Assembly (NCBI GenBank): GCA_000002435.2
Contig: CM018792.1
Direction: 5' to 3' (one strand)
Length of the DNA: 64,000 nucleotides
Source: Giardia intestinalis
Taxonomy: Eukaryota
Position 1 is the first letter of the stretch. Each line of letters starts with the position of its first letter. The notes under the pieces are model-generated. The model ran no database searches, was not told the DNA's origin, and saw nothing but the letters and a program-made list of their open reading frames with translations. Positions 32,301-49,713 of the stretch are shown here, piece by piece. The position numbers were made by a program, and so were the translations under genes.

Positions 32301-32581
32301 GCCGTAGGCGGTATCGCCTTGCTCCAGTCAAAGCGTGTAGCATGCATATAAAACCCCGGCTCTATTATGATTGACGGCTTCGAGTATGTATCTATTAGTG
32401 TCTGATTCTTTGTTTGGCACTGATCAATGACTGTAGTGGATGCATGAAACCGAAGAAGATAGGTGGTCTTGGAGAGATTTGTAACAGAATTAAGGCGTGT
32501 ATTAACCAGAATAGCCGAAAGCTCTTTAGCCAAAACAGCTACATCAAAGGATGACGGGGTAAGTTTACGCGAGACAGACAT
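29390..32581 (-). CDS. NEMF: NEMF / Rqc2 / Tae2 (ribosome quality control complex subunit, NFACT family)
   Basis: The NFACT-R signature is WFEKFHWFFSTDGYLVLSGRDAQSNELLVKKFMSSNDIFVHSEAHGAACTIVKA. It also has an NFACT-N-like N-terminus, a coiled-coil basic middle and a C-terminal CCLCGILGHNKNTC zinc knuckle. Confidence 0.9.
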   Translation of the reverse strand: MSVSRKLTPSSFDVAVLAKELSAILVNTRLNSVTNLSKTTYLLRFHASTTVIDQCQTKNQTLIDTYSKPSIIIEPGFYMHATRFDWSKAIPPTAFSNRLRTEICNMICTGVSQFYFDRVIILEFSRYNSDLKRYLIVELYGRGNLILTDEAYKVLVTQSKMPGQHVGGNYFSMHGDDRVILMDIEKLCTLDHFRQIIAKASKQKGQNASFRAALAKDFFLGGSASAIVLRAVNCKTSIKAKAVQEDEQLVIKLWKVCEGVLKCLIEAAKSSFDSLLSKGYIYFYREDELAIVDTGEGDLDDTIMTAIRVAEYHIFDIRSIYQEGALYRAEDIREYESYNKTLDEYNSFLVTARAYQNRAQLIQKAKSTIAHAQDTTEDRMASLLNSATQKRLLAECILWKATEIDYLTKQMEFLFKTGRITWNDVIAWMNCGSTDIPLLEAISSIDVVRKLVSFNISIFASDIHNMCYTDCTPFLALSKFRATEKQGILDLEASNETEDNNEQQVCGSCGDTKIVSDPTEPIVISVDVPFKGAAGTTAHIIAKTLFEAAKAAEEKCKRTLGHSSAYFDKVEKKATADIDSVMKETDAELIALQHQRSPLWFEKFHWFFSTDGYLVLSGRDAQSNELLVKKFMSSNDIFVHSEAHGAACTIVKAPRLTTTDIPQQNTVLRWVPPVQTMLEAGAFTVIHSKMWAQKVGTQSYWVYADQVSKTAPAGMYIGTGSFVIRGKRNFIPQQPLELGVALLWRYDTANVMDPASEAPPPWQVAYSDKNESIICTTEDAGQTVDESGKLLVLSTQKQKSQVTTAEQVLKDSNKDERKRLQKERQAKIRVQKQQAKIKRLISEGRLEEAESYKKMISAQRGEDSQDDTGDEGSICSSDFCCLCGILGHNKNTCTTSSMSKDYKTLFDAHISPVLATMWKSVASIPPFTYTTGDTVIHSGEVLLEEDQDGFQKHIDKGNGEQNVTSLSVSAMISTKRPAEGELPGLVVMIAPYSVVERFFGVIRIIPGDITKGKTHRLVQKMLLDDKGLELSRYEQLCIKQIPEHAIVLGIPGSMNVQSCKTKK

Positions 32582-32829
32582 AAATTATCTCAATTTTTTA
32601 ACACGTTAAGATGTTTGCCTTTGTGCGGGTCGCCAATAGTGCCATTGCACATGTAAGACCATACGGAGACATTAGCTATGTCGGAAGAGAGAAAAGCAGT
32701 AGAGGCAAAAGTTTTATTTGCGACAAGAAGGCAGATCAAGCGTCCTGAGGGATCCTCTGTCGTCTCCACCTGCTTCACGCCGTGCTCCGGTGGGCTGGCA
32801 CTCTGCGGTCGGCTCGAGCGCCTGCGGGC

Positions 32830-32842
32830 CTAGGTAGTAAAT
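32830..32842 (+). promoter_or_regulatory. Orphan VSP-type 3' motif CTAGGTAGTAAAT (compare VSP CTTAGGTAGTAAAT) at the GC-island border
   Basis: It follows the TAG (32831-32833) of an unlisted 52-codon plus-strand ORF (32678..32833) ending ...SGGLALCGRLERLRA*. No substantial plus-strand gene sits upstream. Confidence 0.35.
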
Positions 32843-32875
32843 TGCCATCAGCGGGTCCTGCTCGCGGCCGCAGAC

Positions 32876-34450
32876 CTATTGCCTGGGAGCGGGGAGCTCC
32901 ACGTCGCGGCCCTCGAGCCCGGGGGGCACGCGGTCGAGGACGGCGACAGATACGCCGCTCACGCCCTCCTCGCGCAGCGCGCTGGCCAGGCGCTTCCTGA
33001 ACCACTTGGCGGAGCTGGCCTCCTTGCCCTCCCGGTACTTGAAGCAGAAGTAGAGGGTCCCCCCGCCCCCCTCGTCCTGCACGACCCGGCTCAGCAGGTT
33101 CCACCACAGCAGCGGGCGGTCCTCGCCGCACCAGAAGCCCTCGCGCCGCCCGAGATCTCGGTAGGCCTCGGGCAGGTGGGCGACCTCCACGACGGGGCCC
33201 TGGGCCGCCTCTGCAGGGCCCCCGGCGCCGCACCAGACGTCCCCGGGGTCGAGGGCCGCGAGGCCGGAGCAGTCGCCGGGCACGCGCCCCTGGACGGCCC
33301 GGATCCCGACGCCCCGGTCGCGGGCCCTTCTGCAGGCCTCGGCGAACTTCTGCAGGGGCGCGGCGTGCCTGAAGCCGATGTACATCACGTACTCCCCGGC
33401 CTCCTCGCCGTGCAGGACGCGGTCCGGGGGCGTCTTCCCCTTCAGGACCCCCAGCCCCCGGAAGCCGGCCCCCCGGTACGCGTCGGGGATGCCTGTGAGC
33501 CGCACGACGCAGGCCGGGTCGCCGAAGGGCGCGCCCGCCCGGACCTTGGTCCTCGTGGTCCCGTCGTCGGTGTTGAGCACGACGCGCCGCTGGGCCCTCT
33601 TGATGGGCGGCTCGTCTGGAGGCTCTCCCGTCCCATCGGAGGAGCCGGAGAGCTCGACGTCGCTCACGGCGGGCGTCCCATCCACGCGCTCCGACAGCGT
33701 GCGGAGGTCGCGCCCGGGGGCCTCTGCGTATGCGTAGACGCTGCTGCGCCGGAGGGCCGGCCCCACGAGGAAGTTCCGCTGGCAGACGGAGTAGGCGCAG
33801 AGGCACGCGGCGTGGGCGGTGGGGAAGCGGGCCGCATAGCCCCGCAGCGCCCGCGCGCCCTCCCCGAGGACGAACTCGGAGAGGGAGACGCCCTCGGCGA
33901 AGACCGCGAGGTCTGCCAGCAGGCCGTCCCCGGACCCGGGGGCGCGGGGCACGACCCAGAGCGTGCCGTGGGCCTCGTGGGACTGCGGGAGGGACGAGAG
34001 GGCGCCGAGGCTGCTGAGCGAGACCTCGACCAGGGAGCCCGCGATGGCGCCCGCGGCCGGCAGGGGGGTGCGCGGCGGCTCGCAGGCCGGCTTCTCTGCA
34101 TCCCCACCGGGCCCGTACCGCTCGAGCAGCCGGCGCTCCCTCGGGTCGAGCGGGCGGCTCCCCCGGGCCTCGGCCTCCCGGCGGCCCCTCGCCACGCCGT
34201 CCCCCAGCGCCGCGGCCCGCCCCTCCTCGACGCACAGGCTCCTCTGGATGGTGTCGGCCAGGACGTCCGGGTCCCCCGTGAGCTCCAGGGTGCGGGCCGC
34301 CAGCCCGAAGAACGCCAGAAAGGTCCTCTGCTCGAGGCGCACGTTCACACTCAGCATGCATTTACGGACCCGGGCGGCGTACAGCGCGTGCGCCCCGTCC
34401 CCTGGCACGGCCGGCGGGGAGAGGGCGGCACCGGCGGGGCCCGCGGACAT
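32876..34450 (-). CDS. Hypothetical protein in a GC-rich island (524 aa; very high GC3)
   Basis: ATG at 34448-34450. The composition is protein-like (F, Y, W, K, C present, e.g. GTLYFCFKYREGKEASSAKWFRKRLASALREEG), unlike the overlapping plus and alternate-frame ORFs, which are R/G/P/A-only. Confidence 0.6.
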   Translation of the reverse strand: MSAGPAGAALSPPAVPGDGAHALYAARVRKCMLSVNVRLEQRTFLAFFGLAARTLELTGDPDVLADTIQRSLCVEEGRAAALGDGVARGRREAEARGSRPLDPRERRLLERYGPGGDAEKPACEPPRTPLPAAGAIAGSLVEVSLSSLGALSSLPQSHEAHGTLWVVPRAPGSGDGLLADLAVFAEGVSLSEFVLGEGARALRGYAARFPTAHAACLCAYSVCQRNFLVGPALRRSSVYAYAEAPGRDLRTLSERVDGTPAVSDVELSGSSDGTGEPPDEPPIKRAQRRVVLNTDDGTTRTKVRAGAPFGDPACVVRLTGIPDAYRGAGFRGLGVLKGKTPPDRVLHGEEAGEYVMYIGFRHAAPLQKFAEACRRARDRGVGIRAVQGRVPGDCSGLAALDPGDVWCGAGGPAEAAQGPVVEVAHLPEAYRDLGRREGFWCGEDRPLLWWNLLSRVVQDEGGGGTLYFCFKYREGKEASSAKWFRKRLASALREEGVSGVSVAVLDRVPPGLEGRDVELPAPRQ

Positions 34451-34462
34451 TTTAAGGAGGGC

Positions 34463-36781
34463 CTATGCCCCCAGAATGCCGCACTTCATGGCCAGCGACG
34501 CGTGCGGGAACTCGTCCCCGTCGGCGACCACGCGGTGGTTCGTCACCGTCGCGACCCCGAACGGGACGAGGTCCGACGTGATGACCTGGCCGTTGCTCCG
34601 CAGCCGGACCAGGCAGGACAGCCCGGAGGCGCCGAACGCCCCCGCGCAGATCTGCGCCCACTTGGCCGCGTCGCTGACGGGGAGGCAGACGTCCGGGAGC
34701 CCGACGGCCCGGAACCCGTTCGCCAGCAGGACGTGGATGAGGGGCTCCTCCCTGTTCGCGCTGTCTCGCAGGGTGAACGCACCGTTCAGGCTGCAGAGGC
34801 TGTGCTCCAGCAGGCCGCAGACAGAGGCGATCCGCTCCCGCGAGATCGGGAGGGCCAGGTAGAGCGGGCCGGCGGGCGGGGCGCTGGCCAGCTCGGAGAG
34901 CGAGCGGATGTCCGCCAGCCGGCCCTGGGCCCTCCTCGGCGCAGAGGGGTCGGGGGGCGTCTGCGCCGCGAGCCGGAGGTAGTCCAGCAGCCCCAGCTCC
35001 GCGACGGACGAAAAGTAGTACTGGAGGCGCAGGAGCCGGCAGCCGAGCACGAACCTCCGCGCAGCGCGGGGCGCCGCCAGGAGCCGCCGGAGGAGGTGGC
35101 CGTAGAAGGCAGAGCCGTCGTCGCAGTAGAGCCCCGGCGCCCTGCCGGAGGCGAGCAGCAGGGGGCTCCGCCTCGAGGGGAGGATCTTCTCGGCGCGCGG
35201 GGCGGGGAGCCTCTGGAGGTGCGGCACCGCGGAGAGAGAGGCGACGAAGCAGCCGCCCTCGACGTCATCGGCCAGGAGGTTGACGACGCAGAGGGGCCTC
35301 CCCGTGGCGGCGCAGAACTGCTGCAGCGCAAGGCAGCCGGAGCCCGGGTCTGCGGAGAGCACCTGGGACGAGGCGTCGAGGTGGAGCCGCGGCACGTAGA
35401 GCGGCCTGCCGCACCGTTGGCACGCCCTCCCGCGAGAGACGGGCTCCGAAGAAGGCTCCGCGCCGCCCTGGCCGTCCTCTGCCTGTCTGCCGGTGTGTCC
35501 GGGCGGGTCCGGGGCCGCGCTGTAGAGCACGTTGAAGGCCGAAACCGCCGGCCTGTGCTCCAGGAGGAGCGTGCAGGGGGAGCCCGCGCAGGTGCAGTAG
35601 GCGACGTCCAGGGGCGTGTGGGCGGCGCGGGCCCTGAAGAGCTGCCGCCTGTGCTCGGGAAGCAGCGCGGCGACGGTGTCGTCCAGCAGCCGGGCCAGCG
35701 GGTACGGGCCGAGGTAGGCGATCCTGAAGTCGGCGCAGCAGAGGTTGCTCAGGACCAGGTTCACGAACCGCGCGCCCTCCCTGCGGTAGACGTTGAGGAG
35801 CCGCGAGGCCGCCCGGTGCTGCTCCTCCGTGTAGCGCAGCACGCAGTACCTGCAGGCGGCCTGGCCTCCCGGGGGCCGGATGCCCTGCGAGGCCGGCTCC
35901 AGCCTCAGGTAGTGGCCCGCAACGACGTCCTGCTCCAGCGCGCGGAGGTGCGAGCGCAGGTCCTGCTCGGACGCGAAGGAGAGCAGCGTGGCGCCGAGGC
36001 CCGCGGGGGCGGGGGGAGCAAGGGCGTCTGCGAGCCCCGGCGCCGGACTGCCCCCGTACTCGGCCTGGAGGTCGCGGAAGGCGCCCGGGAGAGGAGGGGG
36101 CTGCAGGGGGCTCGACGGCCGGGCGGCGGGCAGGCTACGGGGCGGCGCGAGCTGCGAGAGGGAGCAGAGAAGGTGGTGGATCTCCTGGGAGACGAGGTCC
36201 CTCACCGCGGCCACGGTCCCGGGGCGGAGGCCGCGGAGGTGGCCCTCGACGCTGGCGAGGAAGCTCCGGGCCAGGTTGTTCGCGGCGCCGTACAGCCCCC
36301 CGCCCAATGCCCCGGCCGCGAAGAGCAGGGAGACGGCGTACGAGTGGGGCCCCGGGCTGTGCTGCAGGTGCTCGGAGAGGGGAAACGCCCGGGCGGCGCC
36401 GACGTCAAAGTTGTGCACCTCGTTGAAGAGGAACTCGTTCACGCGGTCGTGCACGGACGGGGCCCTGGAGGGCGGGGCGGGCCCCAGCAGGCGCGGCCGG
36501 GCCGGGCGGGGGAGCGAGCACAGGGTTCCGACGTAGACGCTGCCGGCCGCCCCCGTGGCCCCGAGCTCCTTCACCCGCCAGAGCCCGGGGCGCGCGCTCC
36601 CCGCCAGCGCGAGCTCGTCGTCGAAGGCGAGCTTGATGGCCTGGGCCGTCTTGCGCAGGTCCTCCTCGGCCAGGCGGCGGCTGCGGCTCACCCAGCACCA
36701 GACCGGGACGGGGACCGCCGAGACGCTTATGGAGAGCTGGACCTCCTCGACAAGGCCGGTGTCGATGAACGCATAGCGCAT
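34463..36781 (-). CDS. Hypothetical protein in a GC-rich island (772 aa; CxxC pairs CRYC / CQRCGRP)
   Basis: ATG at 36779-36781 with CATAAAATAC about 20 nt upstream. It is in the same frame as the downstream 524-aa gene, separated only by TAG plus 3 codons. It ends ...AMKCGILGA*. Confidence 0.6.
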   Translation of the reverse strand: MRYAFIDTGLVEEVQLSISVSAVPVPVWCWVSRSRRLAEEDLRKTAQAIKLAFDDELALAGSARPGLWRVKELGATGAAGSVYVGTLCSLPRPARPRLLGPAPPSRAPSVHDRVNEFLFNEVHNFDVGAARAFPLSEHLQHSPGPHSYAVSLLFAAGALGGGLYGAANNLARSFLASVEGHLRGLRPGTVAAVRDLVSQEIHHLLCSLSQLAPPRSLPAARPSSPLQPPPLPGAFRDLQAEYGGSPAPGLADALAPPAPAGLGATLLSFASEQDLRSHLRALEQDVVAGHYLRLEPASQGIRPPGGQAACRYCVLRYTEEQHRAASRLLNVYRREGARFVNLVLSNLCCADFRIAYLGPYPLARLLDDTVAALLPEHRRQLFRARAAHTPLDVAYCTCAGSPCTLLLEHRPAVSAFNVLYSAAPDPPGHTGRQAEDGQGGAEPSSEPVSRGRACQRCGRPLYVPRLHLDASSQVLSADPGSGCLALQQFCAATGRPLCVVNLLADDVEGGCFVASLSAVPHLQRLPAPRAEKILPSRRSPLLLASGRAPGLYCDDGSAFYGHLLRRLLAAPRAARRFVLGCRLLRLQYYFSSVAELGLLDYLRLAAQTPPDPSAPRRAQGRLADIRSLSELASAPPAGPLYLALPISRERIASVCGLLEHSLCSLNGAFTLRDSANREEPLIHVLLANGFRAVGLPDVCLPVSDAAKWAQICAGAFGASGLSCLVRLRSNGQVITSDLVPFGVATVTNHRVVADGDEFPHASLAMKCGILGA

Positions 36782-36869
36782 GCCCGCGGCCGCCGAAGTA
36801 TTTTATGGAAAGCTCCCGGGCCGGCCGGGCTCCCGGGCGGGCGGTGTGGGCAGGCTGCCTTTCTATCCG

Positions 36870-37091
36870 CTAGCTGGAGCGCACCCAGAGGCGCCGCAGC
36901 AAGACAGCGCGGATGCAGATCAAGTCGTTCACTGTGGAAGGACACCGAGAATAGTGCTCAACGCAGTGTGTATCTGAGTTCCTGTCGCACTTCTTTGTAT
37001 CAGTGTTGAGGGTGTAGCCCGGGAAGCATGTGTCCTTCCCGCTGTCCTTTGCCAGCACGGTTGCACAAACTAGGAGAAATCCTACCAACAT
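36870..37091 (-). CDS. Possible small secreted cysteine-rich peptide (73 aa)
   Basis: From the internal ATG at 37089-37091: MLVGFLLVCATVLA (signal-like) then DSGKDTCFPGYTLNTDTKKCDRNSDTHCVEHYSRCPSTVNDLIC. The longer track ORF 36870..37397 has a non-protein-like N-terminus. The 3' end runs into the GC-island border. Confidence 0.25.
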   Translation of the reverse strand: MLVGFLLVCATVLAKDSGKDTCFPGYTLNTDTKKCDRNSDTHCVEHYSRCPSTVNDLICIRAVLLRRLWVRSS

Positions 37092-37759
37092 TAGCCGGAG
37101 TACACGTGCCACTGCTCTTCCGTCAGGCTGATGTGTTGCCGCGAGCAGTGAGAGACAGCCGCTCTTGCTCTCCTTGACCAGTTGTACTAGAGAAGAACGA
37201 GATAAGAGCACACCCACCGGAGGCCAGCTGATGGCACGATTCCCCCTGGCTTCGATAGGAACAGGATGAGTGGGGGTCAGATTCAGACCGTGCCTCTCTT
37301 GTGGAGTGATTGTTTGGGATGCATTCCTATACATTGCTGTCGCTGTGCTCGTCGGCTTCCTCTGCAGAGGCAGGCATCTCGGTAATAAACGCGTCATTGG
37401 TGAGTTCTACTGATAGCGCCTAGATGTCATTAGTCCACGAATGTCCTGTTAATCATCCCAGAGAGCATGCCCTAAAATGTGACTTGCTTGGGCTCTGGCA
37501 GAATTGTGAATAAGCCAACTTAAACGTGTAAGTTTGTGCTATTGAAATTAGGAAAGAAGCGGTTCTCTTTCTCTAGCGAAGGACTAATAGAGAGCAAACC
37601 TCTAACTCTGCATATTGACAAAAGATTAAGAGTGATTCATAGCCTCGAAGATCAAAGCAAATGCCACAGTAGATACAATCTGATAATTTACTTTGCTATA
37701 CAAACTATCAATAGTTGGAGTACTAAATTCTACAAAAAGTGAAGGAGTACAGCACGAGA

Positions 37760-38725
37760 TTAGGCCTCCTGATCAACTGGAAGAGCACTATCTGCTGGTT
37801 GCTCATTAGCTGACTCGATCTGAGACTGGTTACTAACATCTTCCAATTGCTCCCTAGGTATCTGGGGCTTATCTGCATCGACCTGGGGAGGATGGCTAGT
37901 CGTGACTGGACATGAATTTTCAGGGGATCTGGGGGATTCAAGGCCTCCTTCAGCCTGCATTAGAGGATCCGGAAGAGAGGCCACATACGCTGCAAATGCC
38001 TCCATAATGGATACTGACTTGTCAGACTTGGCACGTTGATCAAGCGCAGCAGAAAGGCTGCTTACCTCTGCGTTGAGCTTGATGAAGTAGTCACCCATGC
38101 AACTGGTTAACTCGGCAATGAGGCTCATTGTAGTCCAGTCGATCTTCTCGAGGCTCGCGTGCTGATTAGCCATATGTTCCTTGTATGCTGTCTCGTCCAC
38201 CTCCCAAGAGCGCTTCAACTTCTGCATTTTAGCTGTTGTTTGCGATATTGCTTTAACCATCTTGTTTCCGCTAGAGCCTAGTTTCATATTCAAGATATCA
38301 AAGTCCAAATCATCGTACTGGCGCTTCTTCAAAAGGATTCCTTGTCGTTCCTTGTCAAGCTTTGTCATGCACCCACTCACAGTACGAAATGGCTTAACAA
38401 CACGCTCCTGAAAGCTCTGAGCGAGGTTGGCTACCGTAGAAACCAAGCCAGTATTGAGCGTGTTGACCGCTGAGATGAAGTCCTCGAGACTCTTAACATA
38501 GGGAGCACACTCAAAAGGTAAGAGATCCGGGCTTGGTGGGTTGCGCGACTTCAGGAGGGCCTTCTGCAGGTTCTTGGCAAACCCTTGGCCGATGACTCTC
38601 AAGTGTACAGAGAGCTTCTGGATCCACTCGAAGTTGTCGATGAGCTCATCAATACGTATCATCTCTGCGCGCTCGTAGAGGCGCACCTTGTTGGAGAAGT
38701 CGAAGTCAGGTTTAACCACGTCCAT
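37760..38725 (-). CDS. Hypothetical helical/coiled-coil protein (possible BAR-like) with a Pro/Ser/Gln-rich tail
   Basis: First ATG at 38723-38725, preceded by CTTTTAAAA. The ORF is open to a TTG at 38749. About 230 aa of helical heptad-like sequence is followed by a low-complexity acidic tail. Confidence 0.5.
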   Translation of the reverse strand: MDVVKPDFDFSNKVRLYERAEMIRIDELIDNFEWIQKLSVHLRVIGQGFAKNLQKALLKSRNPPSPDLLPFECAPYVKSLEDFISAVNTLNTGLVSTVANLAQSFQERVVKPFRTVSGCMTKLDKERQGILLKKRQYDDLDFDILNMKLGSSGNKMVKAISQTTAKMQKLKRSWEVDETAYKEHMANQHASLEKIDWTTMSLIAELTSCMGDYFIKLNAEVSSLSAALDQRAKSDKSVSIMEAFAAYVASLPDPLMQAEGGLESPRSPENSCPVTTSHPPQVDADKPQIPREQLEDVSNQSQIESANEQPADSALPVDQEA

Positions 38726-38913: not shown

Positions 38914-39579
38914 TTAATGGGCTTTCCCCTCTGCGCTCTCCTCGTCCGCGGCTATTAGAACTTGCTGGACATTTCGCTTCCCCATCTTAACTAAGAAAAA
39001 TGTCAATCCCAAAATTCCTGTTACAAGAGAAATTCCGGCCATTTTTTCAAATGTAGCTTTATCGGAGTCAAGGATGATTATCTTCCGTGCGACCGCAGTT
39101 ATCGCGACTAAAATGATTATTTCTACATGAGCATCTGATGTTTCTATGTGCACAGCCACGCTCTGCATCAGCTCAAGTCCAATGAGGACATAAAAGAATG
39201 AACTAAAAAGGCTTCCATACTGGGATGTCCCAAATATGAGATTTGGCGGTGTTGCAAAGCTGTTATACAGGGAGTACCCGCACTCTATAAGGGACGTCAA
39301 AATGAATATAGCTAACAACAGTGCCAAAATAACTATGACGTACTTTTCAAAGATGAGCATGGCGACAATGTACCGCTTCAAAAACTGGTTAGAACATGAT
39401 TCTCTCCGATTAGCTATCTCTGCTGACTCCTGTGCTATCGTCGGCTTTTGCTCCGGCATGTCCGCTGGCAAGAAAACGCCTCTATCGAGAGCGATAGACC
39501 GCCGCGTTGCAGAGGGCTGCATGGCTACAATACCAAAGTTAGCTTTACTGGGTACAGAGGCCAAGTTGTCGCCATTCAT
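38914..39579 (-). CDS. PsiE-like (phosphate-starvation-inducible E family) membrane protein
   Basis: FFYVLIGLELMQSV...VEIIILVAITAVARKIIILD parallels E. coli PsiE FLYFEFIALIVKYF...RYFVYIGITAIVRLIIVD. It has 4 TM segments plus an N-terminal extension. Confidence 0.6.
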   Translation of the reverse strand: MNGDNLASVPSKANFGIVAMQPSATRRSIALDRGVFLPADMPEQKPTIAQESAEIANRRESCSNQFLKRYIVAMLIFEKYVIVILALLLAIFILTSLIECGYSLYNSFATPPNLIFGTSQYGSLFSSFFYVLIGLELMQSVAVHIETSDAHVEIIILVAITAVARKIIILDSDKATFEKMAGISLVTGILGLTFFLVKMGKRNVQQVLIAADEESAEGKAH

Positions 39580-39624: not shown

Positions 39625-41562
39625 TCAGCTTGGATACTTTTCATTGAGCTTCTTCTGTGCCTCCCACTCCTTCACCAACTTCTTGTATCGGCTTTTTGGT
39701 ATGGGCAAAGGATTACCGTCAGGCCCCGTCTCGGCCAAGTGAGTGGGAATCCCACGCTCATCAAAAGCTGAGAACTCCACGTTCTCTAGAAACATCTTCT
39801 CGGCTGGAATTAGGGCCTTTTCGCGCTCTAAACGCTGCTTCTCAAGCTTTTCCTGCTGCACCTTCTCTTGTTGAAGCCTTTTGGCTTCTGCTAAATCCAG
39901 TTCTCTTTGGCGTTGGACCTTCCACTCCTCAACGTTTATCGGCTTAATATAAGACTCCTTGTCTGCATCTTCGATAGCAAATCCTGTCAATGGTAGGTGC
40001 TCATCTCTGAGCCTGTCACACAACCCTAGAAGCATCTTCTTTAGAGTCTTGGTATCTGTCTCAGCAGTATTAGTGGTTGAGGCCATCAATAGATCCTTTA
40101 TTTCTCTCCTGAAGTTACAGACGACTCTAGCGACTTGCAAGGCGTTTTCTGCCGTTGAAGTTTCACCTCTTGCATACGAGAAACCCATAATTGAGAGGAC
40201 ATGTACAATTTTATCCCGTGCATTAGATAGGAGAAACGTGCTGACCTGCCTGCCTTCTGTCTGGCATGCAAAGATGTATGCCTTGCAGTTATCGATCAAC
40301 AACATCACATGACTCATAGCGGAAACAATGTTTATATCGTTGCGGAAGGCCGTATCCACGTTGGAGAGGAACTCTATGGTCTGCGCTTCAAGAGCCTCTT
40401 CCGTTGTACTGTATCTAAGGTTCTTGATTGGCTCAGAAAGCTCTTCCTCGTGCTGAATGATCTGGCGACAATTGGACAGGAAACTGGTGATTTTTTTGTC
40501 CTTGGCAACTGCAGCATCCATCATCGAGATGCTGTAATCCAGCGACGCGCTGTATGGAACCATGCAAAAAAGCATGCGAACTTGGTTTGCCGTAAAGATG
40601 CTAAGAATCTCACGCACGGTTTTAAAGTTCTTTTTAGACTTTGACATAACATCCCCTGCTATCTTCAAGTGCCCACTGTGCAGGAAGCATCCTATCATGT
40701 TCTTTTTCCCGGCCCAGGTCTCCAACTGGATCAGCTCATTGTCGTGGTGAGGGAATTGTAGGTCACAGCCACCCAAGTGGAGATCAAACGCCCCTCCAGT
40801 GTCCTTCCCTAACACAGCTGCCGCCATCGCGGAGCACTCTATGTGCCAGCCAGGCCGTCCGGGCAGGGTGATCAGTTCCGAGACAGCGCCATTTTTGTGG
40901 GAAAAGGTTGCATCCCACTTGGCATCCTCTGGTTCTGTTTCTTTCCATGCCTTCCAGAGTGCGAAATCTGAGGCTGAGCGCTTTTCTGAGACGCGATTCT
41001 TGCTGTCCATCCCATCTGCATTCTGGATCAGGAGCTGGAGCTCGTCAGAACTACTGCCCAGAGGCCGAAGCTTGGGATAGGAGTACCCAGCGCTGCGGGC
41101 TGCGGCCACGTCAAAGTAAACAGACCCCGCGCTCACATATGCAAATCCGTTGTCCATGATCTTCTGGATGAAGAGAATGATGTCGGCCATGTACTCGGTT
41201 ACGCGAGTGACCACTGTGAAGGGACGAACTGAGAGGGTGTGCATGTCGGAAAGGAACTCCTGCTCGTATTTACGGCAGATGTCGAAGATGGACGAGCCCC
41301 TCTCTACGGCGCGGGCGATGATCTTATCGTCGACGTCCGTGATGTTGCACTGGTAGCGAACGCGCAGCCCGAAGTAGTCCTCGAGGATGCGGCGGACGAC
41401 GTCGAAGGTGACGTATGTGCGCGCGTGGCCCAGGTGGGTCGAGTCGTAGACCGTGGGGCCGCAGATGTAGGCCAGGACTGTGCTGGGTGCGTGGGTCCTG
41501 AGCTCCTCGAGGCGCCCGGTGAGGCTGTTGGTGAGCCAGACGGAGGTCGGGAACGCGGCCAT
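39625..41562 (-). CDS. CARS: Cysteinyl-tRNA synthetase (class I)
   Basis: It has the HIGH motif ([27 protein letters not shown]), ITDVDDKII and the KMSKS variant VMSKSKKN. Length 645 aa with a K/E-rich C-terminal extension. Confidence 0.95.
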
Positions 41563-41582
41563 TTATCGGCGCCGGGCGGAGG

Positions 41583-41587
41583 CAAAA
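41583..41587 (-). terminator. Pol III T-run (TTTTT) immediately 3' of tRNA-Cys
   Basis: The minus strand reads ...CAGGCCC-T-TTTTTGCC. Confidence 0.5.
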
Positions 41588-41659
41588 AGGGCCTGACCGG
41601 ATTTGAACCGATGACCACTCGGACTGCAGCCGAGCGCTCTACCCCTGAGCTACAGACCC
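41588..41659 (-). tRNA. tRNA-Cys (anticodon GCA), 72 nt, U73 discriminator
   Basis: A manual cloverleaf fits: acceptor GGGTCTG/CAGGCCC (one G-U), U8 A9, D-stem GCTC/GAGC, anticodon stem CTCGG/CCGAG, loop CTGCAGT (anticodon GCA), T-stem ATCGG/CCGGT, T-loop TTCAAAT, and discriminator U (the Cys identity element). Confidence 0.9.
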
Positions 41660-41722
41660 CTGCTGCGAGCCGGAAGGGATGAACATGCATCCTCGTGTAG
41701 CTTTGTGGCTCTTCCGAAAGCA

Positions 41723-42151
41723 ATGGCGTTCCAGACCCTCGACGCGATCAACGAGCTGGCCGCGCAGGCCGCCCGGGTGGCCGGTCCGGCGCAGCCCCCG
41801 CCGAAGGCCCCGCAGCTCGCAAGCCGGGCCTGCGACACCCCCGGGACGGCCGAGGAGACAGACAACGAGGACCTCGACGACGTCCCGGCCGGCGAGCTCG
41901 AATGCAAGGTGTACAGCGAGGAGCATCGGAAGGCCGTTCGGAAAGAGATACAGCGGACCATCAAGAGCGGGATCGTCATCACCATCATCAGCGTCGTCAT
42001 GGTCCTCGTCCTCACCTGGTTCATTGTAAGTAGATTCCCGCTGGTCCTGGTCATCGTCTGGGCCTCTATGACCGCCGTCCTCACGATCCTTGGTGTGGCT
42101 GCCTGGATATGGGTCTGTGCACGGTTCAAAAAGGCACGTGCAGAGACATAG
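41723..42151 (+). CDS. Hypothetical small membrane protein (2 TM)
   Basis: The ATG at 41723 gives MAFQTLDAINELAAQ... with a GC-rich N-terminus and two hydrophobic helices at the C-terminus (IVITIISVVMVLVLTWFIV and LVLVIVWASMTAVLTILGVAAWIWV). The ORF is open from a GTG at 41705. Confidence 0.4.
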   Translation: MAFQTLDAINELAAQAARVAGPAQPPPKAPQLASRACDTPGTAEETDNEDLDDVPAGELECKVYSEEHRKAVRKEIQRTIKSGIVITIISVVMVLVLTWFIVSRFPLVLVIVWASMTAVLTILGVAAWIWVCARFKKARAET

Positions 42152-42290
42152 CCTGGCGCGCTCTTATGGAAATAGAAACAGTTCGGCAAGTAAACAGTTG
42201 TTAGCAAGGCATGTATGTTCATGGTTCCATCGGGTAAACAGGGCATGTAGTGTACACGTTCTTAAAAGCTAATTCTCGAGTGCCTTGTTT

Positions 42291-43496
42291 ATGACCGAAT
42301 GCCTGGAGAGTAATGAATACTGTATTTGCACGCCAACAGCAGATAATAGCGTAGTTATATGTAAGTGCAAGGAGGGATATGTTAGTAGAGACAACCAGTG
42401 CTACAGCAAAGAATGTTATGACAGTCTCACAGACAGCTTTTGTGGAAACTTAGGCTTTGCTACATGCGATAATAGTGCACAGAAGTGTAACTGTGGCAAT
42501 ACAGGCCTTACTCTAATGTCCTTTCATGGGCGATGCGTAACAGAGAATTGTTTAATTGGAAAAGAGCCTAGCCGGACTGAGTGTTGGAATAGAGGGTACT
42601 GTCAAATTAACTTAGCTGGAGGGATATGTCGTTGTTACTCTGCATACTTAAACGACACTGGGTGTACTAAGTGCAATCCAGAAACATCCCTGGAGAAGAA
42701 GGTATCAAATGGAGTTGAGTGCATTCCAAAAACGTGCATGGATAAGGAGAATCCTAGCGTCGATCTTGTATGTAATAACATCGGAACGTGTACTCCCTTT
42801 GTCAACTCAGAGTCAACCATGCTGTACATATGTAAGTGCAATAGCCATGCTTTCAGTGTAGGAGACTCATGCTATCCAAAGGAGTGTGTGATTACAGACC
42901 CTCTTGTCTCCAACAGCCTCACTGTCTGCAACTCAAAGGGATCTTGCGATTTCAAAACAAGTAGATGCAACTGCATCGCACCTTACACAGGAAGATTCTG
43001 CCGGTCTTGCTTACCGGAATATATCCACCAATATATTGCAACCGAGAACGGCTTTCTCTTTCTCTGCGTCCACGAGAACTGCTGGGATGAGTCGCTTAAT
43101 ACGCACTGCAGTGGTCACGGGAACTGTACAATGGATGCCGTGTCTAAGGTCTATAAGTGCTCATGTGAGCAAGGATACAATCTTGTGAAGGGCACGTACA
43201 ACATTTGTGCGTCAAACACCGTCCGTAAGCGTAATCGGCAAGGCTACCTTCTGCTGTCTGACGTCTTGTTTGTCGCGCTCTTTGCCGTGGCCATTCTTGG
43301 AATAGGTGTATATCTCCTTGTGAAGCTTTTGTCTGAAAAGAAGGCCAAGCGAGACCATGAGCTTTACATCCATCAAGAGAAGATCACAATAGCAAGGAAT
43401 CTCCATAATGATTTGTCATCAGCTAAGCAGGCGTCTGCTCAATCTAGCGTCCTTTCCACTGCCGAGTACATAGCTTTTCAGCGAAGGTACATGTAG
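42291..43496 (+). CDS. EGF-like high-cysteine membrane protein (HCMP-like), no N-terminal signal peptide
   Basis: It has repeated CxCxxGY/EGF-like modules (CKCKEGY, CRCYSAY, CKCNSHAF, CSCEQGY), a single C-terminal TM (LLLSDVLFVALFAVAILGIGVYLLV) and a cytoplasmic tail. The frame opens only at 42273 and the N-terminus MTECLESNEYCIC is not hydrophobic. Confidence 0.7.
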   Translation: MTECLESNEYCICTPTADNSVVICKCKEGYVSRDNQCYSKECYDSLTDSFCGNLGFATCDNSAQKCNCGNTGLTLMSFHGRCVTENCLIGKEPSRTECWNRGYCQINLAGGICRCYSAYLNDTGCTKCNPETSLEKKVSNGVECIPKTCMDKENPSVDLVCNNIGTCTPFVNSESTMLYICKCNSHAFSVGDSCYPKECVITDPLVSNSLTVCNSKGSCDFKTSRCNCIAPYTGRFCRSCLPEYIHQYIATENGFLFLCVHENCWDESLNTHCSGHGNCTMDAVSKVYKCSCEQGYNLVKGTYNICASNTVRKRNRQGYLLLSDVLFVALFAVAILGIGVYLLVKLLSEKKAKRDHELYIHQEKITIARNLHNDLSSAKQASAQSSVLSTAEYIAFQRRYM

Positions 43497-43636
43497 TGCT
43501 CACACTGTATGTCAGCACCTCTGTTAGGTTCTTCCTGTTTCAGTTTAGTTAGTAAATTAATATGCCTTCAGCGTCTGTACAGCTTGCACAGTGGATTTCT
43601 TATCCTTGGCCAAGTCTCAATTAAATCAATAAGCTC

Positions 43637-44743
43637 ATGGGCATAGTTGAGCAAATAGCTGAGGTAAAGACTGAGATGGCACGTACCCAAAAGAACAAGG
43701 CCACAGAGCATCATCTAGGACGCCTGAAGGCCAAGCTTGCGCGACTGGAGAGTCAGCTCATCAGCGAGGTCACAAAGAAATCTGGAGGAAAGGGGTCTGG
43801 ATTTGATGTTGTTAAGCAGGGACAAGCTAGAATTGCACTCGTTGGGTTCCCATCTGTGGGGAAAAGCACCTTTCTCACGCGGTATACCAACGCGGAGTCT
43901 GCATCAGCAGCCTATGAATTCACCACTCTTACCTGTGTTCCAGGCACGATGGAGATAAATGGAGCGCCAATACAGATTCTTGACCTCCCAGGAATCATCG
44001 AGGGGGCCGCCACGGGCCTAGGGAAAGGACGACAGGTGATTGCAACCGCTAGAACAGCAGACGCCATAATAATGATGCTTAGCGCATGCAACGCAGTCAA
44101 GGAGAGGCGGATCCTTACAAAGGAGCTAGAGTCTATGGGAATCCGTCTGAACAAACGCCGACCAAGCATTGAACTACGCCCAGCCTCAATGGGGGGTATA
44201 CAGGTGCTTTCGGACAATGTATTGACCGTCCTAGATCACGACACAATACGGGCCACTCTTGCAGAGTATAAAATCCACAACTGTCAGGTGCTTCTCCACT
44301 GCGATGCAACCGTCGATGACCTAATTGACGTAGTAGAGGGCAACAGAGTTTATATGCCGTGTATCTACGCTATCAACAAAATTGACATGGTAAGTATTCC
44401 CGCTGCCGAGTACTATGCAAAGCAGCCGGACACCGTTGTTATTTCAGCAGAGTGCGATCTCAATGTCGATTACCTGAAGCGAATTATCTGGCAGCGGCTG
44501 CAGTTAGTACGCATCTATACCAAGAAGCGGAACTGTCCGGCAGATCTTAGTCAAAAGGAAGCGGTTTTTCTCAAACAAGGAGATACAGTCGAGAAGCTTT
44601 GTGCAAATATTCACAATGATATGGTATCCAATTTTTCGTATGCAATGGTGTGGGGTAGAAGTGCCCAACACTGTCCTCAGCGAGTCGGAAAAGACCACAA
44701 GCTAGCCGACGAAGACGTTGTCCAGATAGTTTTGAGAAAATAG
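43637..44743 (+). CDS. DRG: Developmentally regulated GTP-binding protein (DRG, Obg family, TGS domain)
   Basis: MGIVEQIAEVKTEMARTQKNKATEHHLGRLKAKLA matches the DRG N-terminus. It has the G1 motif GFPSVGKST and G3 motif DLPGIIEGA. Confidence 0.9.
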   Translation: MGIVEQIAEVKTEMARTQKNKATEHHLGRLKAKLARLESQLISEVTKKSGGKGSGFDVVKQGQARIALVGFPSVGKSTFLTRYTNAESASAAYEFTTLTCVPGTMEINGAPIQILDLPGIIEGAATGLGKGRQVIATARTADAIIMMLSACNAVKERRILTKELESMGIRLNKRRPSIELRPASMGGIQVLSDNVLTVLDHDTIRATLAEYKIHNCQVLLHCDATVDDLIDVVEGNRVYMPCIYAINKIDMVSIPAAEYYAKQPDTVVISAECDLNVDYLKRIIWQRLQLVRIYTKKRNCPADLSQKEAVFLKQGDTVEKLCANIHNDMVSNFSYAMVWGRSAQHCPQRVGKDHKLADEDVVQIVLRK

Positions 44744-44801
44744 CATAAGCAGGATCAACCAGAACGCCCACGGCTCCCTTCTGCTCCTGGTGACGCACTA
44801 T

Positions 44802-45518
44802 TTACTGATGATACTCCGCATACAGAATATCCTCTATCTTCTTCACGACACTCTTAATGTAGAACGGAGAGTCTTCTGGCTCTGCAATCTCCACTTGTGT
44901 CATAAGTTCGTTCATTTGATCCATATATATCTCTATTTCATGCAACTTATCAAAGTAAAATTGTGACTCTAGCTGACCCTTTGCAATTTGACGACGTAAG
45001 TCCTCAAGCTCCTTAGAGTCAATTGAGGGCCCGGACGTGCTTGAGGCCTTGGGGTTCTGCATGGATGCAGCGGTGCTGCCTGACCTATTTCCTGGTTTTG
45101 ATGTTTTAGTAACAGCGTTGGCAGATCCAGATTCTGTAGCACCAGACTTGGATCCCTTGTAATTTTGGTCAAAGAACCACTTGAACCATTGGAAGAACTC
45201 GAAGTTGTCCATGTACTTCCCTGTGACTAGCTTATTGACGTCAATGCCCTTATCTATATTGTTACGACTCAAAACGTCCTGTATGATCTTAAAATTTTCT
45301 GACCTTTCCCACTCGTTGATAGCATTCATGCGAACACGATGCATGTTCACCTGTCCCGGATAAACAAGATTCAGGGCCATACAATAGTGGTGTCCCGATG
45401 CCAGGTCCTCAACTTTCTTGACAGGCTCATTAAGCAATTCTGATATCCACTTGAGCAAGGAGACGCGGCCTACAAAGTAGCAGTCAGACACATTTCCGGG
45501 TGCTTTTACCGGCGGCAT
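44802..45518 (-). CDS. EB1: EB1 (microtubule plus-end binding protein, CH domain plus EB homology domain)
   Basis: The CH domain LLKWISELL...HYCMALNLVYPGQVNMHRVRMNA...FKIIQDVL...DKLVTGKYMDNFEFFQWFKWFFDQNY is followed by the C-terminal FYFDKLHEIEIYMD (EBH). The track's first M is a TTG; the ATG is at 45516-45518. Confidence 0.9.
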   Translation of the reverse strand: MPPVKAPGNVSDCYFVGRVSLLKWISELLNEPVKKVEDLASGHHYCMALNLVYPGQVNMHRVRMNAINEWERSENFKIIQDVLSRNNIDKGIDVNKLVTGKYMDNFEFFQWFKWFFDQNYKGSKSGATESGSANAVTKTSKPGNRSGSTAASMQNPKASSTSGPSIDSKELEDLRRQIAKGQLESQFYFDKLHEIEIYMDQMNELMTQVEIAEPEDSPFYIKSVVKKIEDILYAEYHQ

Positions 45519-45576
45519 CAAGCGTGAATTTAAATTTTGAGCTTTTACTTACGTTTCTACCCAACTTAGCTCACGC

Positions 45577-46017: not shown

Positions 46018-49000
46018 TTATTCTCCAAGCAATGCATCAAGCATATGCACAAGTGTCAAATTGTGAGCCAATAGAAACCCCCCATATGTCTGTTCAAGAG
46101 CGACCAAGATTTGTTTCTTACATTTCTCTGCGTCTTCCTTCGGCATATGTTCTCCCTCATTTATATCGTTAATATGCAGCCGTTTAAATGCTTTAATATA
46201 CACATTGCTGTTGTCTTCATCGCACATGGACATAACTTTATAAACAAACCGCTTGAAGAGTATGGGAGAAGCCGCTTTCAAAATGTCTGTGCAGCGCTCT
46301 ATCCCGAGAAGAACAAACTGCGCCTGTGTAGTCTCGAAGACCTTGATCAGTGAGTAGAACAAAATCACAATAAGTACCCACAGATGTGCATCTGCTTCTG
46401 AAGCTTCTTCTAGGCTTCTACTACTTAAGAAGGAAAGGAGATACGGAAACGACCTGCTCACCTTGGTACTATTTTGCCGTGTAGAAAACGATAGCGCCAC
46501 AATGAGTTGCATAAAGAGCTTCGTGATAAAAGATAGGGGTGACTGCTTAGAATTGATATTGACCGTCACAGAGTCAAGAAGCTTAGTGATTAATTTTCCA
46601 CAAATGAAGGCACAAAGCGTTGAAATCCTCTGCGTTGAATATAAAATGAGGGGTAGAAGAACTTGGTAGATGAGCTCATTGATGTCTGCCGCAGATAAGT
46701 TGAGAAGTAGCTTTAGGTCCTCAGTAGTAAAGAGTTCGATGCTTTCCAGCTGGTCGTTTGAGGAGTCCCCACACTCTCTAAATGCGTTCCAAACAGTTGT
46801 TAGAAAGACATTTGACGCAGGAGACAGTGCTTGCGGCGGCGGTGCCATGAAGTAAAGTCCCGAAAGGTAGCGGATGTGTGGCAAGTACGTGCACTGGGCC
46901 TTGTTAAAGGTACTATAAAGGCTTTCCAAGAGACCGATGTTCTCCGACGCCTTGGAGGCAAGAGTTGACATGAAGTACAGAAGCTCGTTAACGGTGGAAA
47001 CGACGAGCTCCGACGTTTGCTCATAGGTCGAGACATTCTTCAATAGTATGGCCCATTTCCAGAAGGCGCCACTAGGTAATGCCTGTAGAAGCGGCAAAAA
47101 CGTGTCTGGATTAAGCAAGTACGCCGCAAGTGGTTCTGGCATGGAGTAGGTACGTGGACCACAAAGCAGTGGGCATTCTCCTATGCTCTGTATGCATGTA
47201 TCCGCGAGCATACTGGGAGACTTTCCATTAAGAAGAGACTCCGCTAAGGGAGACATGTCTGCAACTTCAGCGTTTGCTGAAGCGTCCATAAGGTGGGTAA
47301 TAAGCTCTCTCAAGCAGTACATTGCTGGAAGAGACCCAAACTTCAAGGACCCCATAAGATTTGCAAGCAAATATTGACCGGAAAGATCACTCGATGTTTT
47401 GCTAATGGTCCAATCGACATGAATTGTTAATCTGACAGCAACAGAGACATAGTTGCGATAGTAGCTACGGAGCCATCCACTTTCCCGAGATAGGTGATGT
47501 CCCGATCTGGCTTGCTGATCTAAGGAGACGTCGTCTAAACACTCATCAGTAATAGATTGTATAATCAGCCAGGTATAAAACTCCTGGACAAGTGGATGTG
47601 ATGAGATAATAATGCCGCAGAGAAGAGAGCGAATATCCGCCAGCTCGAGACGGCGCTTAACATATTCATGCACAAGAATCAAAGAGGTGGCCGGCAGAGA
47701 AGCAATGCTTGACATGACGCCAGAACAGTTTGTCAGACAAAGAACACTGATCAAATACTGTTCGATGAAGGACTTGAGCGTCACATAGTAGAAATTCCTC
47801 TTGCACTCTATGCCCGATAAAGCAGCCAGAAAAGAAGGACATTGTTTCACCTTCCTCGCGCAAGCAGAAATGGATGACAGCTCCTCCATGATAGCAGAAT
47901 ATATCTCCCTTCTATGAGTGAACCCCATTGTGCTTAGCTTATCCCACGCGAGAGATAGGGCCTCCTGACAGTACGGGGCAAAGAACAGATTAGCAATGAT
48001 TTGACCGACAAACCGGTAATCAGATGAATTAATGCTCCCCTCTAAGGCATGAGAATAGGAGTCTAGCGTTGGAAACACAGCCTTGTCTATACAGCATAAC
48101 GAGAAAGACTGTTCATAAAGAGTTCTAAGTATCCCACAATCCATCAGCCATGGAACTGTTGCATGGGCAAGCTTGAAGTGATCACTAGGAATGATGTTAG
48201 CAAGAGAACCATCACCTAATAAAGCGTACATGAGCATGTTGGCCCCTTCAGTTTCATTATGTTTGAGTAATAAGTAGATAAAGTTCAGAAAAACAAACCT
48301 CATGTTGTTATGGGAAAGCCAATAGACAGGGAGGTCCAGTAGACAGCTTATTGAGTCGCCCAGGGTTTGATACTTGTGCTTGATGTTCTCGCTTTTCGTG
48401 GCGATTTCAGCTGCAAAAGGAGGCGCTTTAGTTGGAAGGTTGCAGGTTGATAAGGGAGTAGAAAAAGTATAGATGTCATACAGCTCGGCAAGGTATGTAG
48501 TAAGCTCCCTCTGAACAGACGCTTGCGAGACGCCTTTGCAGAGCTTGATGCAGATGTATTTAAGTAGCTTATCGCATAATATATTTGGGCTGTCTTCACA
48601 GTTGAAGCCAGCGGACAAGATAGTTCTAAGTGACATTGACTCTGAAGACGGAGGGTCTTCTCTAACAATAGTGAGCATGGTTAAGATCCGCAGAATAAGT
48701 TTCTCTGTAGATAAAATGGAACTAGAGCAGGGTAAATAAAAAGATATAATGTAGTGAAATAGCATGGTAGGAAATGTTATGTCTTCAGCCCACCGAGGGT
48801 CGAGAAAAAGAGTAATAAATCCTTTAGACAAGCAGAACCGTAGTACCCCCTGTTGAAGAAATATGCGCATAGTGAACTGCATGCTAATTGGAACGGTACT
48901 CATTACCGAATAGAAAAGTGCATTCTTAAGTGCTGCCAGAGCTCGGCTTTGCTCTTCAGAGTCTACTGTCCCAGAGGCCTCTGGAGCTAACAGAAGTGCA

Positions 49001-49713
49001 ATTAACAGGATACGGACAGAAAGAGCCATGTCATGGAACGGTTCAGTCACGAATGTCAGTGCATCAACCTGGGCAGTGCGTAGTTCGTGGTTGCTGTAGA
49101 CGCGGGCAATGCGCAGCAGAACCTTTTGAGCGTCTGCAGGCAAAGACAGCTCCTTCACAGATGGAATAGCTAGCTCGGCCTGCAGTATATCTAGCGTAGA
49201 AACCAACTCTGCGACTCCACGTGAAAGGCCAACAAGGAGTCTGGATGGAGTCATGAGCTTTGTTGAGTGAATAGGTGAAAACCCGATAATTAGTGAGCAC
49301 AGGAGCGCTACCCATGCTCGGACCCCTGGAGACGACTTCAGGTCGGAGAGTAGCTGGCTTGCTGGTGTATCTGATTGAATCCCTAGAAGTGCCCCAACGG
49401 AGAAGATGGCACTGGTAACGGTGCAAAGCCGTTGAATGCTGATGTCTCGTTGATCTAGAATATAGGTATGGATCCGCTTTACAAGATAGTCTAAATCCAG
49501 CCTAGCGTGCGGCATCTGGACGCTTCTATCGTGCTTGAAAAATGTGTATCTATTTAGCTCCTGATGAGACGCATTTCCTTCCATTAGAACATACTTCCAA
49601 ATCAGCGCGACAATTGTCTGACTGGCTGATAAGCTTGTCTGGGCACCAACTGCTCGTTGCAAATCATTGAGGGCCGCGTTGTCAGAGATGTACTTGGGCC
49701 CTCCAGGTTTCAT
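46018..49713 (-). CDS. Large hypothetical helical-repeat protein (1231 aa)
   Basis: Uninterrupted ORF with an ATG at 49711-49713. The composition is leucine-rich and helical throughout, HEAT/ARM-like, but no specific family is recognised. Confidence 0.7.
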   Translation of the reverse strand: MKPGGPKYISDNAALNDLQRAVGAQTSLSASQTIVALIWKYVLMEGNASHQELNRYTFFKHDRSVQMPHARLDLDYLVKRIHTYILDQRDISIQRLCTVTSAIFSVGALLGIQSDTPASQLLSDLKSSPGVRAWVALLCSLIIGFSPIHSTKLMTPSRLLVGLSRGVAELVSTLDILQAELAIPSVKELSLPADAQKVLLRIARVYSNHELRTAQVDALTFVTEPFHDMALSVRILLIALLLAPEASGTVDSEEQSRALAALKNALFYSVMSTVPISMQFTMRIFLQQGVLRFCLSKGFITLFLDPRWAEDITFPTMLFHYIISFYLPCSSSILSTEKLILRILTMLTIVREDPPSSESMSLRTILSAGFNCEDSPNILCDKLLKYICIKLCKGVSQASVQRELTTYLAELYDIYTFSTPLSTCNLPTKAPPFAAEIATKSENIKHKYQTLGDSISCLLDLPVYWLSHNNMRFVFLNFIYLLLKHNETEGANMLMYALLGDGSLANIIPSDHFKLAHATVPWLMDCGILRTLYEQSFSLCCIDKAVFPTLDSYSHALEGSINSSDYRFVGQIIANLFFAPYCQEALSLAWDKLSTMGFTHRREIYSAIMEELSSISACARKVKQCPSFLAALSGIECKRNFYYVTLKSFIEQYLISVLCLTNCSGVMSSIASLPATSLILVHEYVKRRLELADIRSLLCGIIISSHPLVQEFYTWLIIQSITDECLDDVSLDQQARSGHHLSRESGWLRSYYRNYVSVAVRLTIHVDWTISKTSSDLSGQYLLANLMGSLKFGSLPAMYCLRELITHLMDASANAEVADMSPLAESLLNGKSPSMLADTCIQSIGECPLLCGPRTYSMPEPLAAYLLNPDTFLPLLQALPSGAFWKWAILLKNVSTYEQTSELVVSTVNELLYFMSTLASKASENIGLLESLYSTFNKAQCTYLPHIRYLSGLYFMAPPPQALSPASNVFLTTVWNAFRECGDSSNDQLESIELFTTEDLKLLLNLSAADINELIYQVLLPLILYSTQRISTLCAFICGKLITKLLDSVTVNINSKQSPLSFITKLFMQLIVALSFSTRQNSTKVSRSFPYLLSFLSSRSLEEASEADAHLWVLIVILFYSLIKVFETTQAQFVLLGIERCTDILKAASPILFKRFVYKVMSMCDEDNSNVYIKAFKRLHINDINEGEHMPKEDAEKCKKQILVALEQTYGGFLLAHNLTLVHMLDALLGE

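Follow-up and report, generated by a model that had tools for sequence, protein, structure and literature searches.

A tRNA-Cys gene directly upstream of the cysteinyl-tRNA synthetase gene in Giardia duodenalis: a lineage-specific and most likely incidental pairing

Within a 64-kb stretch of the Giardia genome (the window hereafter), a gene for tRNA-Cys lies directly upstream of the gene for cysteinyl-tRNA synthetase (CysRS), with both genes on the minus strand. Finding a tRNA gene immediately in front of the gene for its cognate synthetase raises the question of whether the two are tied together by function, through a shared promoter or a shared transcript, or have come to lie side by side through the local history of the chromosome. 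Comparison of this locus across diplomonads points to the latter: the pairing is specific to the G. duodenalis lineage, and is most likely an incidental by-product of a local rearrangement. Both classes of gene are already known, the tRNAs being annotated (65, by tRNAscan-SE; PMC7000408) and CysRS being named in NCBI, and the literature that we searched on cognate tRNA/synthetase gene adjacency and on Giardia CysRS does not mention the adjacency. The features of the locus are collected in Table 1.

Table 1. Features of the tRNA-Cys/CysRS locus, in window coordinates.
Feature	Coordinates	Strand	Description	Basis
CysRS gene, class I	39625..41562	-	645 aa; HLGH and VMSKS motifs	Pfam, annotated homologue
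Remaining tRNA-CysRS spacer, where Pol II presumably starts the CysRS mRNA	41563..41583	-	ends in A-rich, initiator-like GATAA abutting the ATG	alignment, published consensus
T-run, presumed Pol III terminator	41584..41588	-	TTTTT including the discriminator	read from sequence
tRNA-Cys(GCA) gene	41588..41659	-	72 nt; U73 discriminator; no encoded CCA; no intron	ARAGORN, Rfam
Spacer, tRNA-Cys 5' end to divergent ATG (41723)	41660..41722		63 nt; AT-rich patch at 41679-41690	
Divergent gene	41723..42151	+	142 aa; hydrophobic C-terminal half; no Pfam family	
Block between EB1 and CysRS, G. duodenalis only	41563..44801		3.24 kb; tRNA-Cys, 142-aa gene, 403-aa EGF-like gene, DRG GTPase gene	
EB1 homologue, ancestral upstream neighbour of CysRS	44802..45521	-	CH and EB1 domains; adjoins CysRS in G. 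muris	Pfam

The tRNA gene itself is well defined. ARAGORN returned a single tRNA call in the whole 64-kb window, a tRNA-Cys with anticodon GCA at 41587-41660 on the minus strand, and the Rfam tRNA model (RF00005) aligns to 41588-41659 on the same strand from end to end (model positions 1-71 of 71), scoring 64.7 bits (E = 8.7e-12) where the gathering score is 29. Rfam therefore gives exactly the coordinates that the initial annotation had assigned to a 72-nt minus-strand tRNA, and the anticodon and U73 discriminator claimed there are also borne out, since ARAGORN reads the anticodon as gca and the Rfam alignment ends in a U, at 41588. The GCA anticodon and U73 are identity elements for Cys. The acceptor stem, read from the sequence, is GGGUCUG/CAGGCCC, and the internal A box (TAGCTCAGGGG) and B box (GGTTCAAATCC) each depart from the eukaryotic consensus at one position in 11. 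In an alignment of the intergenic regions of four G. duodenalis lineages the tRNA is identical at 72 of 72 positions while its flanks are just 31-50% identical, a pattern that points to a gene under purifying selection and not to a pseudogene. Further copies or contexts were sought with an exact 49-nt stretch of the gene among JGI metagenome contigs, with no match. Giardia tRNAs are mostly single-copy (PMC2723961), and this may be the sole tRNA-Cys gene of the genome. In its cloverleaf, internal A and B boxes, lack of an encoded CCA, T-run after the discriminator and full sequence conservation between lineages, the gene resembles standard eukaryotic nuclear (type 2 Pol III) tRNA genes of compact protists; it departs from them in its setting, with start codons only 25 nt and 63 nt away on its two sides, and in that homologues of TFIIIC and Bdp1 have not been found in Giardia (PMC3369914).

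The reading frame that follows matches the Pfam family tRNA-synt_1e (PF01406, E = 7.8e-89), and its product is 99% identical to a G. duodenalis protein named cysteinyl-tRNA synthetase in NCBI. The earlier assignment to class I CysRS stands, as does the first of the two signature motifs on which it drew, present as HLGH; the second, given as KMSKS, is seen in the translation only as the variant VMSKS. The N-terminus is conserved as far as G. muris, which supports the ATG at 41562 as the start codon. A public gene call in another G. duodenalis lineage (L008, 753-2828) makes CysRS a 691-aa protein that extends upstream over the tRNA-Cys gene (783-856); we rejected this model as an over-extended ORF-calling artefact, the conserved N-terminus beginning at the methionine of the other lineages, at 891. 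Just downstream of CysRS, at 38914-39579 on the minus strand, lies a gene whose 221-aa product matches the PsiE (phosphate-starvation-inducible E) domain (E = 5e-26); every G. duodenalis locus retrieved has kept this gene. Because the PsiE family is mostly bacterial, lateral acquisition of this gene is possible.

Exactly 25 nt (41563-41587) lie between the discriminator and the CysRS ATG, as had been claimed. The TTTTT terminator of the initial annotation is present as a T-run, although only with the discriminator included does it amount to five T, the tRNA itself being followed by four; about 20 nt separate its end from the ATG. That it serves as the terminator is presumed from general Pol III biology. 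A run of four or five T occurs at the same place in all G. duodenalis lineages compared, with one C inserted after the discriminator in L006 and four T only in L007. Beyond this run little of the spacer is shared. Its length is 25, 15, 39 and 35 nt in the four lineages, mean identity is about 31%, and the sole conserved element is ATAAATG (GAAAATG in L008) at its downstream end. The AT-rich, initiator-like element at the CysRS start codon in the window reads GATAAATG and fits the published Giardia start-site consensus, of which AAAATAAAATG is an example (PMC3792122), so the stretch next to the ATG is presumed to be where the CysRS mRNA starts; the TSS-seq supplements that we searched for a published start site list none for CysRS. 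A linkage running from terminator to CysRS start would be expected to hold the spacing between them, and the variable spacer thus indicates that there is no fixed regulatory architecture.

From the short distance the initial annotation had drawn a dilemma, in which the CysRS mRNA must either start within about 20 nt of the Pol III terminator or be co-transcribed with the tRNA. The dilemma dissolves when set against the genome in which it was framed, where a start near the ATG is ordinary. Giardia 5' UTRs are mostly shorter than 20 nt, down to 1 nt, and the initiator within which transcription begins is AT-rich and lies at the start codon (PMC3792122, PMC1885649). To this initiator-like element the core promoter adds another AT-rich one about 30 bp upstream (PMC1885649), whole promoters take up about 50 bp (PMC2723961), and intergenic regions are typically 30-177 bp (PMC1885649), the median distance being 81 bp for G. 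intestinalis and 37 bp for G. muris (PMC7641422). At the CysRS locus of G. muris only 17 nt separate the stop codon of EB1, the upstream neighbour there, from the CysRS ATG (L005, 3983-4001), which is preceded by GTAAAACAA; with so small a gap, the G. muris CysRS promoter must sit inside the EB1 coding region or the EB1 3' end. A CysRS mRNA start a few nucleotides from the ATG is the default in Giardia, with no special constraint imposed by the tRNA, and the tight packing of tRNA-Cys and CysRS is normal for this genome.

The earlier placement of the tRNA within the upstream promoter region of CysRS does hold, in that the tRNA gene fills the would-be promoter stretch. The ATAAATG of CysRS and the AAAGCAATG of the divergent gene on the other side of the tRNA resemble other Giardia Pol II core promoters in fitting the start-site consensus and spacing, whereas most of the roughly 50-bp promoter stretch is here a tRNA gene and not the usual AT-rich spacer.

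The divergent gene is supported as real by 75-87% identity without indels across the four lineages; its 142-aa product has no match in Pfam. With 25 nt to CysRS on one side and 63 nt to this gene on the other, tRNA-Cys occupies an intergenic region of 160 bp between two divergently oriented protein genes. Despite only about 50% identity, the spacer on the side of the 142-aa gene keeps a length of exactly 63 nt at five of five G. duodenalis loci, and other spacers in the region vary in length (for example, 43-57 nt from the CysRS stop to the PsiE gene). An AT-rich patch within it, at 41679-41690, lies 20-31 nt upstream of tRNA-Cys; measured from the divergent ATG, it is 33-44 nt upstream. As Giardia has yielded TBP and BRF but no homologue of TFIIIC or Bdp1 (PMC3369914), the patch is a candidate upstream Pol III element, perhaps one that the divergent Pol II gene uses as well, which from one locus is speculation. 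By eye, CysRS and the 142-aa gene look markedly richer in G+C at their 5' ends (41300-41900) than in their remainders or in the local average, forming a small GC island centred on tRNA-Cys. Elsewhere in the window, positions 32000-38000 have 60-74% G+C against about 46% for the genome and carry long ORFs of 1376, 772 and 528 aa, which lie on both strands and overlap. This region gave no Pfam match, no Rfam match and no tandem repeats, and the absence of an Rfam match indicates that it is not rDNA.

Whether the pairing extends beyond the window's own lineage was addressed with the CysRS loci of relatives, which were retrieved via exact-protein look-ups and scanned for tRNAs with ARAGORN, negatives being scanned also with Rfam at gathering thresholds. 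tRNA-Cys lies directly upstream of CysRS in the four loci of the window's own assemblage (L001-L004) and in three other G. duodenalis lineages (L006, L007 and L008), whose CysRS is 84-86% identical, so that four G. duodenalis lineages share the adjacency. Outside this species complex it is absent. No tRNA was found by ARAGORN or Rfam in the 4-6 kb around CysRS at any of six non-duodenalis diplomonad loci, namely those of G. muris (L005), a G. muris-like organism (L010), two Giardia-like diplomonads whose CysRS is 53% and 49% identical (L009 and L011), Spironucleus salmonicida (L012) and Hexamita inflata (L013). The comparison with relatives that the initial annotation called for thus comes out positive within G. 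duodenalis and negative in G. muris and the five other diplomonads. The same annotation had entertained a conserved synthetase-substrate linkage, counting the pair as incidental if related genomes lacked it, and on those terms it is incidental. The conservation within G. duodenalis itself carries little weight, because the assemblages are almost collinear, with only 41 synteny breaks genome-wide between A and B (PMC2723961). Adjacency across divergent lineages beyond this background synteny was not seen, being confined to G. duodenalis, and the architecture between the two genes is not fixed, the spacer ranging over 15-39 nt at about 31% identity. This phylogenetic distribution argues against selection for the linkage.

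Gene order around CysRS suggests how the pair arose. A large gene, EB1 and CysRS run contiguously along one strand in both G. muris (L005) and the G. muris-like organism (L010); the large gene is the orthologue of the window ORF at 46018-49713 (E = 9e-41 over about 1,100 residues). The same three genes occur in the same order and orientation in G. duodenalis, but with 3.24 kb between EB1 and CysRS. The three protein genes of the intervening block lie on the strand opposite to EB1 and CysRS, tRNA-Cys forms the edge of the block that adjoins CysRS, and the order EB1, DRG, EGF-like gene, 142-aa gene, tRNA, CysRS, PsiE is collinear in every G. duodenalis locus fetched. Since the block separates EB1 and CysRS in G. 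duodenalis, and the genes are contiguous in G. muris, the pairing is lineage-specific. The DRG gene was used as a marker for the block in two organisms, the G. muris-like one (L014) and a more distant relative (L015). In both its neighbourhood is an unrelated one, and no tRNA was found near it within up to about 10 kb, the L014 sequence ending just after DRG. The simplest reading is that a rearrangement in the G. duodenalis lineage happened to put tRNA-Cys before CysRS, the polarity of this change being taken from few genomes.

In our judgement the locus most probably holds a functional nuclear tRNA-Cys(GCA) gene of the ordinary kind, with CysRS as a separate transcription unit and a pairing that is not selected. 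On this account, tRNA-Cys would be transcribed alone by RNA polymerase III, ending at the T-run, and CysRS would be transcribed separately by RNA polymerase II from the A-rich initiator GATAA abutting its ATG, with a 5' UTR of a few nucleotides like that of most Giardia genes. The 3.2-kb block bounded by tRNA-Cys would have parted EB1 from CysRS within the G. duodenalis lineage, and the pairing would persist through the near-collinearity of the assemblages and not through selection for linkage. The data show directly what the two genes are and how they are conserved, how far apart they lie and how that distance varies, and in which diplomonads the pair occurs; that the transcription units are separate, and where CysRS transcription begins, is inferred.

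Among the points that tell against this explanation are that this may be the sole tRNA-Cys gene of the genome and how seldom such a neighbourhood is expected by chance. For a genome of 65 tRNA genes and 4,963 protein genes (PMC7000408), the expected number of tRNAs with their cognate synthetase as an immediate neighbour is 65 x 2 / 4963, or about 0.026 per genome, and about 0.007 if an upstream position and co-orientation are also required. The figure is notable and not compelling, because the finding was picked from a scan able to flag many kinds of coincidence. Giardia surface proteins are unusually cysteine-rich, and given this a selective reason for coupling tRNA-Cys to CysRS is conceivable.

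Functional coupling without co-transcription is the alternative that survives best, and we regard it as unlikely. Here the Pol III complex would keep the region nucleosome-free, or the T-run and B box would supply the upstream AT-rich element of the CysRS promoter, such that tRNA-Cys transcription sets or buffers that of CysRS and matches synthetase to tRNA supply. tRNA-Cys does lie some 20-50 nt upstream of the start, in the place of the second AT-rich element of Giardia promoters (PMC1885649); the T-run is, besides GATAA, the only A/T-rich stretch in the 25-nt spacer; and to the low chance expectation can be added the retention of the adjacency in four of the four G. duodenalis lineages sampled. 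That retention, however, is what background collinearity predicts (PMC2723961). The T-run moreover starts anywhere from 15 to 39 nt upstream of the ATG depending on the lineage, so the architecture is not fixed, and G. muris and five other diplomonads express CysRS with no tRNA beside it. In a more explicit form of the idea, which we hold to be quite unlikely, the CysRS promoter of G. duodenalis has taken over tRNA-Cys as one of its parts and the Pol III machinery, apparently without TFIIIC, keeps the site open and so couples the expression of both genes.

Co-transcription appears very unlikely. It would require a single tRNA-CysRS precursor, made either by Pol III reading through the T-run or by Pol II from the divergent promoter, from which RNase P and RNase Z would free the tRNA and in doing so make the 5' end of the mRNA. 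In its favour the T-run is short, at four to five T including the discriminator and only four in L007; Giardia transcription is promiscuous and bidirectional (PMC1885649); and dicistronic tRNA genes exist elsewhere, such as tRNA-5S in Yarrowia (cited in PMC3369914). Yet every lineage has the initiator-like ATAAATG (GAAAATG in L008) at the CysRS start codon, which has the look of an independent Pol II start (PMC3792122), and every lineage also keeps the T-run right after the tRNA. A Pol III transcript would in addition have neither a cap nor a poly(A) tail, and further T-runs are likely within the 1.9-kb coding region. Given the short 5' UTRs of Giardia, the conserved ATAAATG/GAAAATG and the 17-nt gap in G. 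muris, co-transcription need not be invoked. Pure coincidence without rearrangement, in which tRNA-Cys was ancestrally beside CysRS and was lost or moved in all other lineages, gains some room from the few genomes on which the polarity of the change rests but is highly improbable, as the tRNA is missing at six non-duodenalis loci, including two outgroups in which neither DRG nor a tRNA is linked to CysRS, and the EB1-CysRS contiguity of the G. muris clade is most simply explained by an insertion in G. duodenalis.

Pairs of cognate tRNA and synthetase genes are known from other systems. The pylS-pylT pairs and bacterial T-box control are widely conserved, with a demonstrated regulatory or co-inheritance logic. 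Like pylS and pylT, the two genes stand side by side in G. duodenalis; unlike pylS-pylT or T-box systems, the adjacency occurs in one species complex, across a variable spacer and with no leader RNA structure. In yeast, tRNA-gene-mediated silencing and tDNA insulators are established, and a nearby tRNA gene tends to repress a Pol II promoter. The Giardia locus shares with these position effects a Pol III gene directly upstream of a Pol II start, and differs from the cases of repression in that the neighbour, CysRS, is an essential housekeeping gene. tRNA genes also occur at rearrangement breakpoints, and the Giardia tRNA-Cys matches these in standing exactly at the edge of the lineage-specific 3.2-kb block.

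A functional coupling would make the locus a rare example, among eukaryotes, of one regulatory unit shared by a synthetase and its cognate tRNA, and a handle on the interplay of Pol III and Pol II in an organism seemingly without TFIIIC; the evidence points the other way. Co-option of tRNA-Cys into the CysRS promoter, if true, would tie a probably single-copy tRNA-Cys to its synthetase in a parasite with a very high demand for cysteine. As it stands, the locus confirms that a Giardia protein gene can work with its start codon only 15-39 nt from an upstream Pol III gene, which fits the published picture of Giardia promoters.
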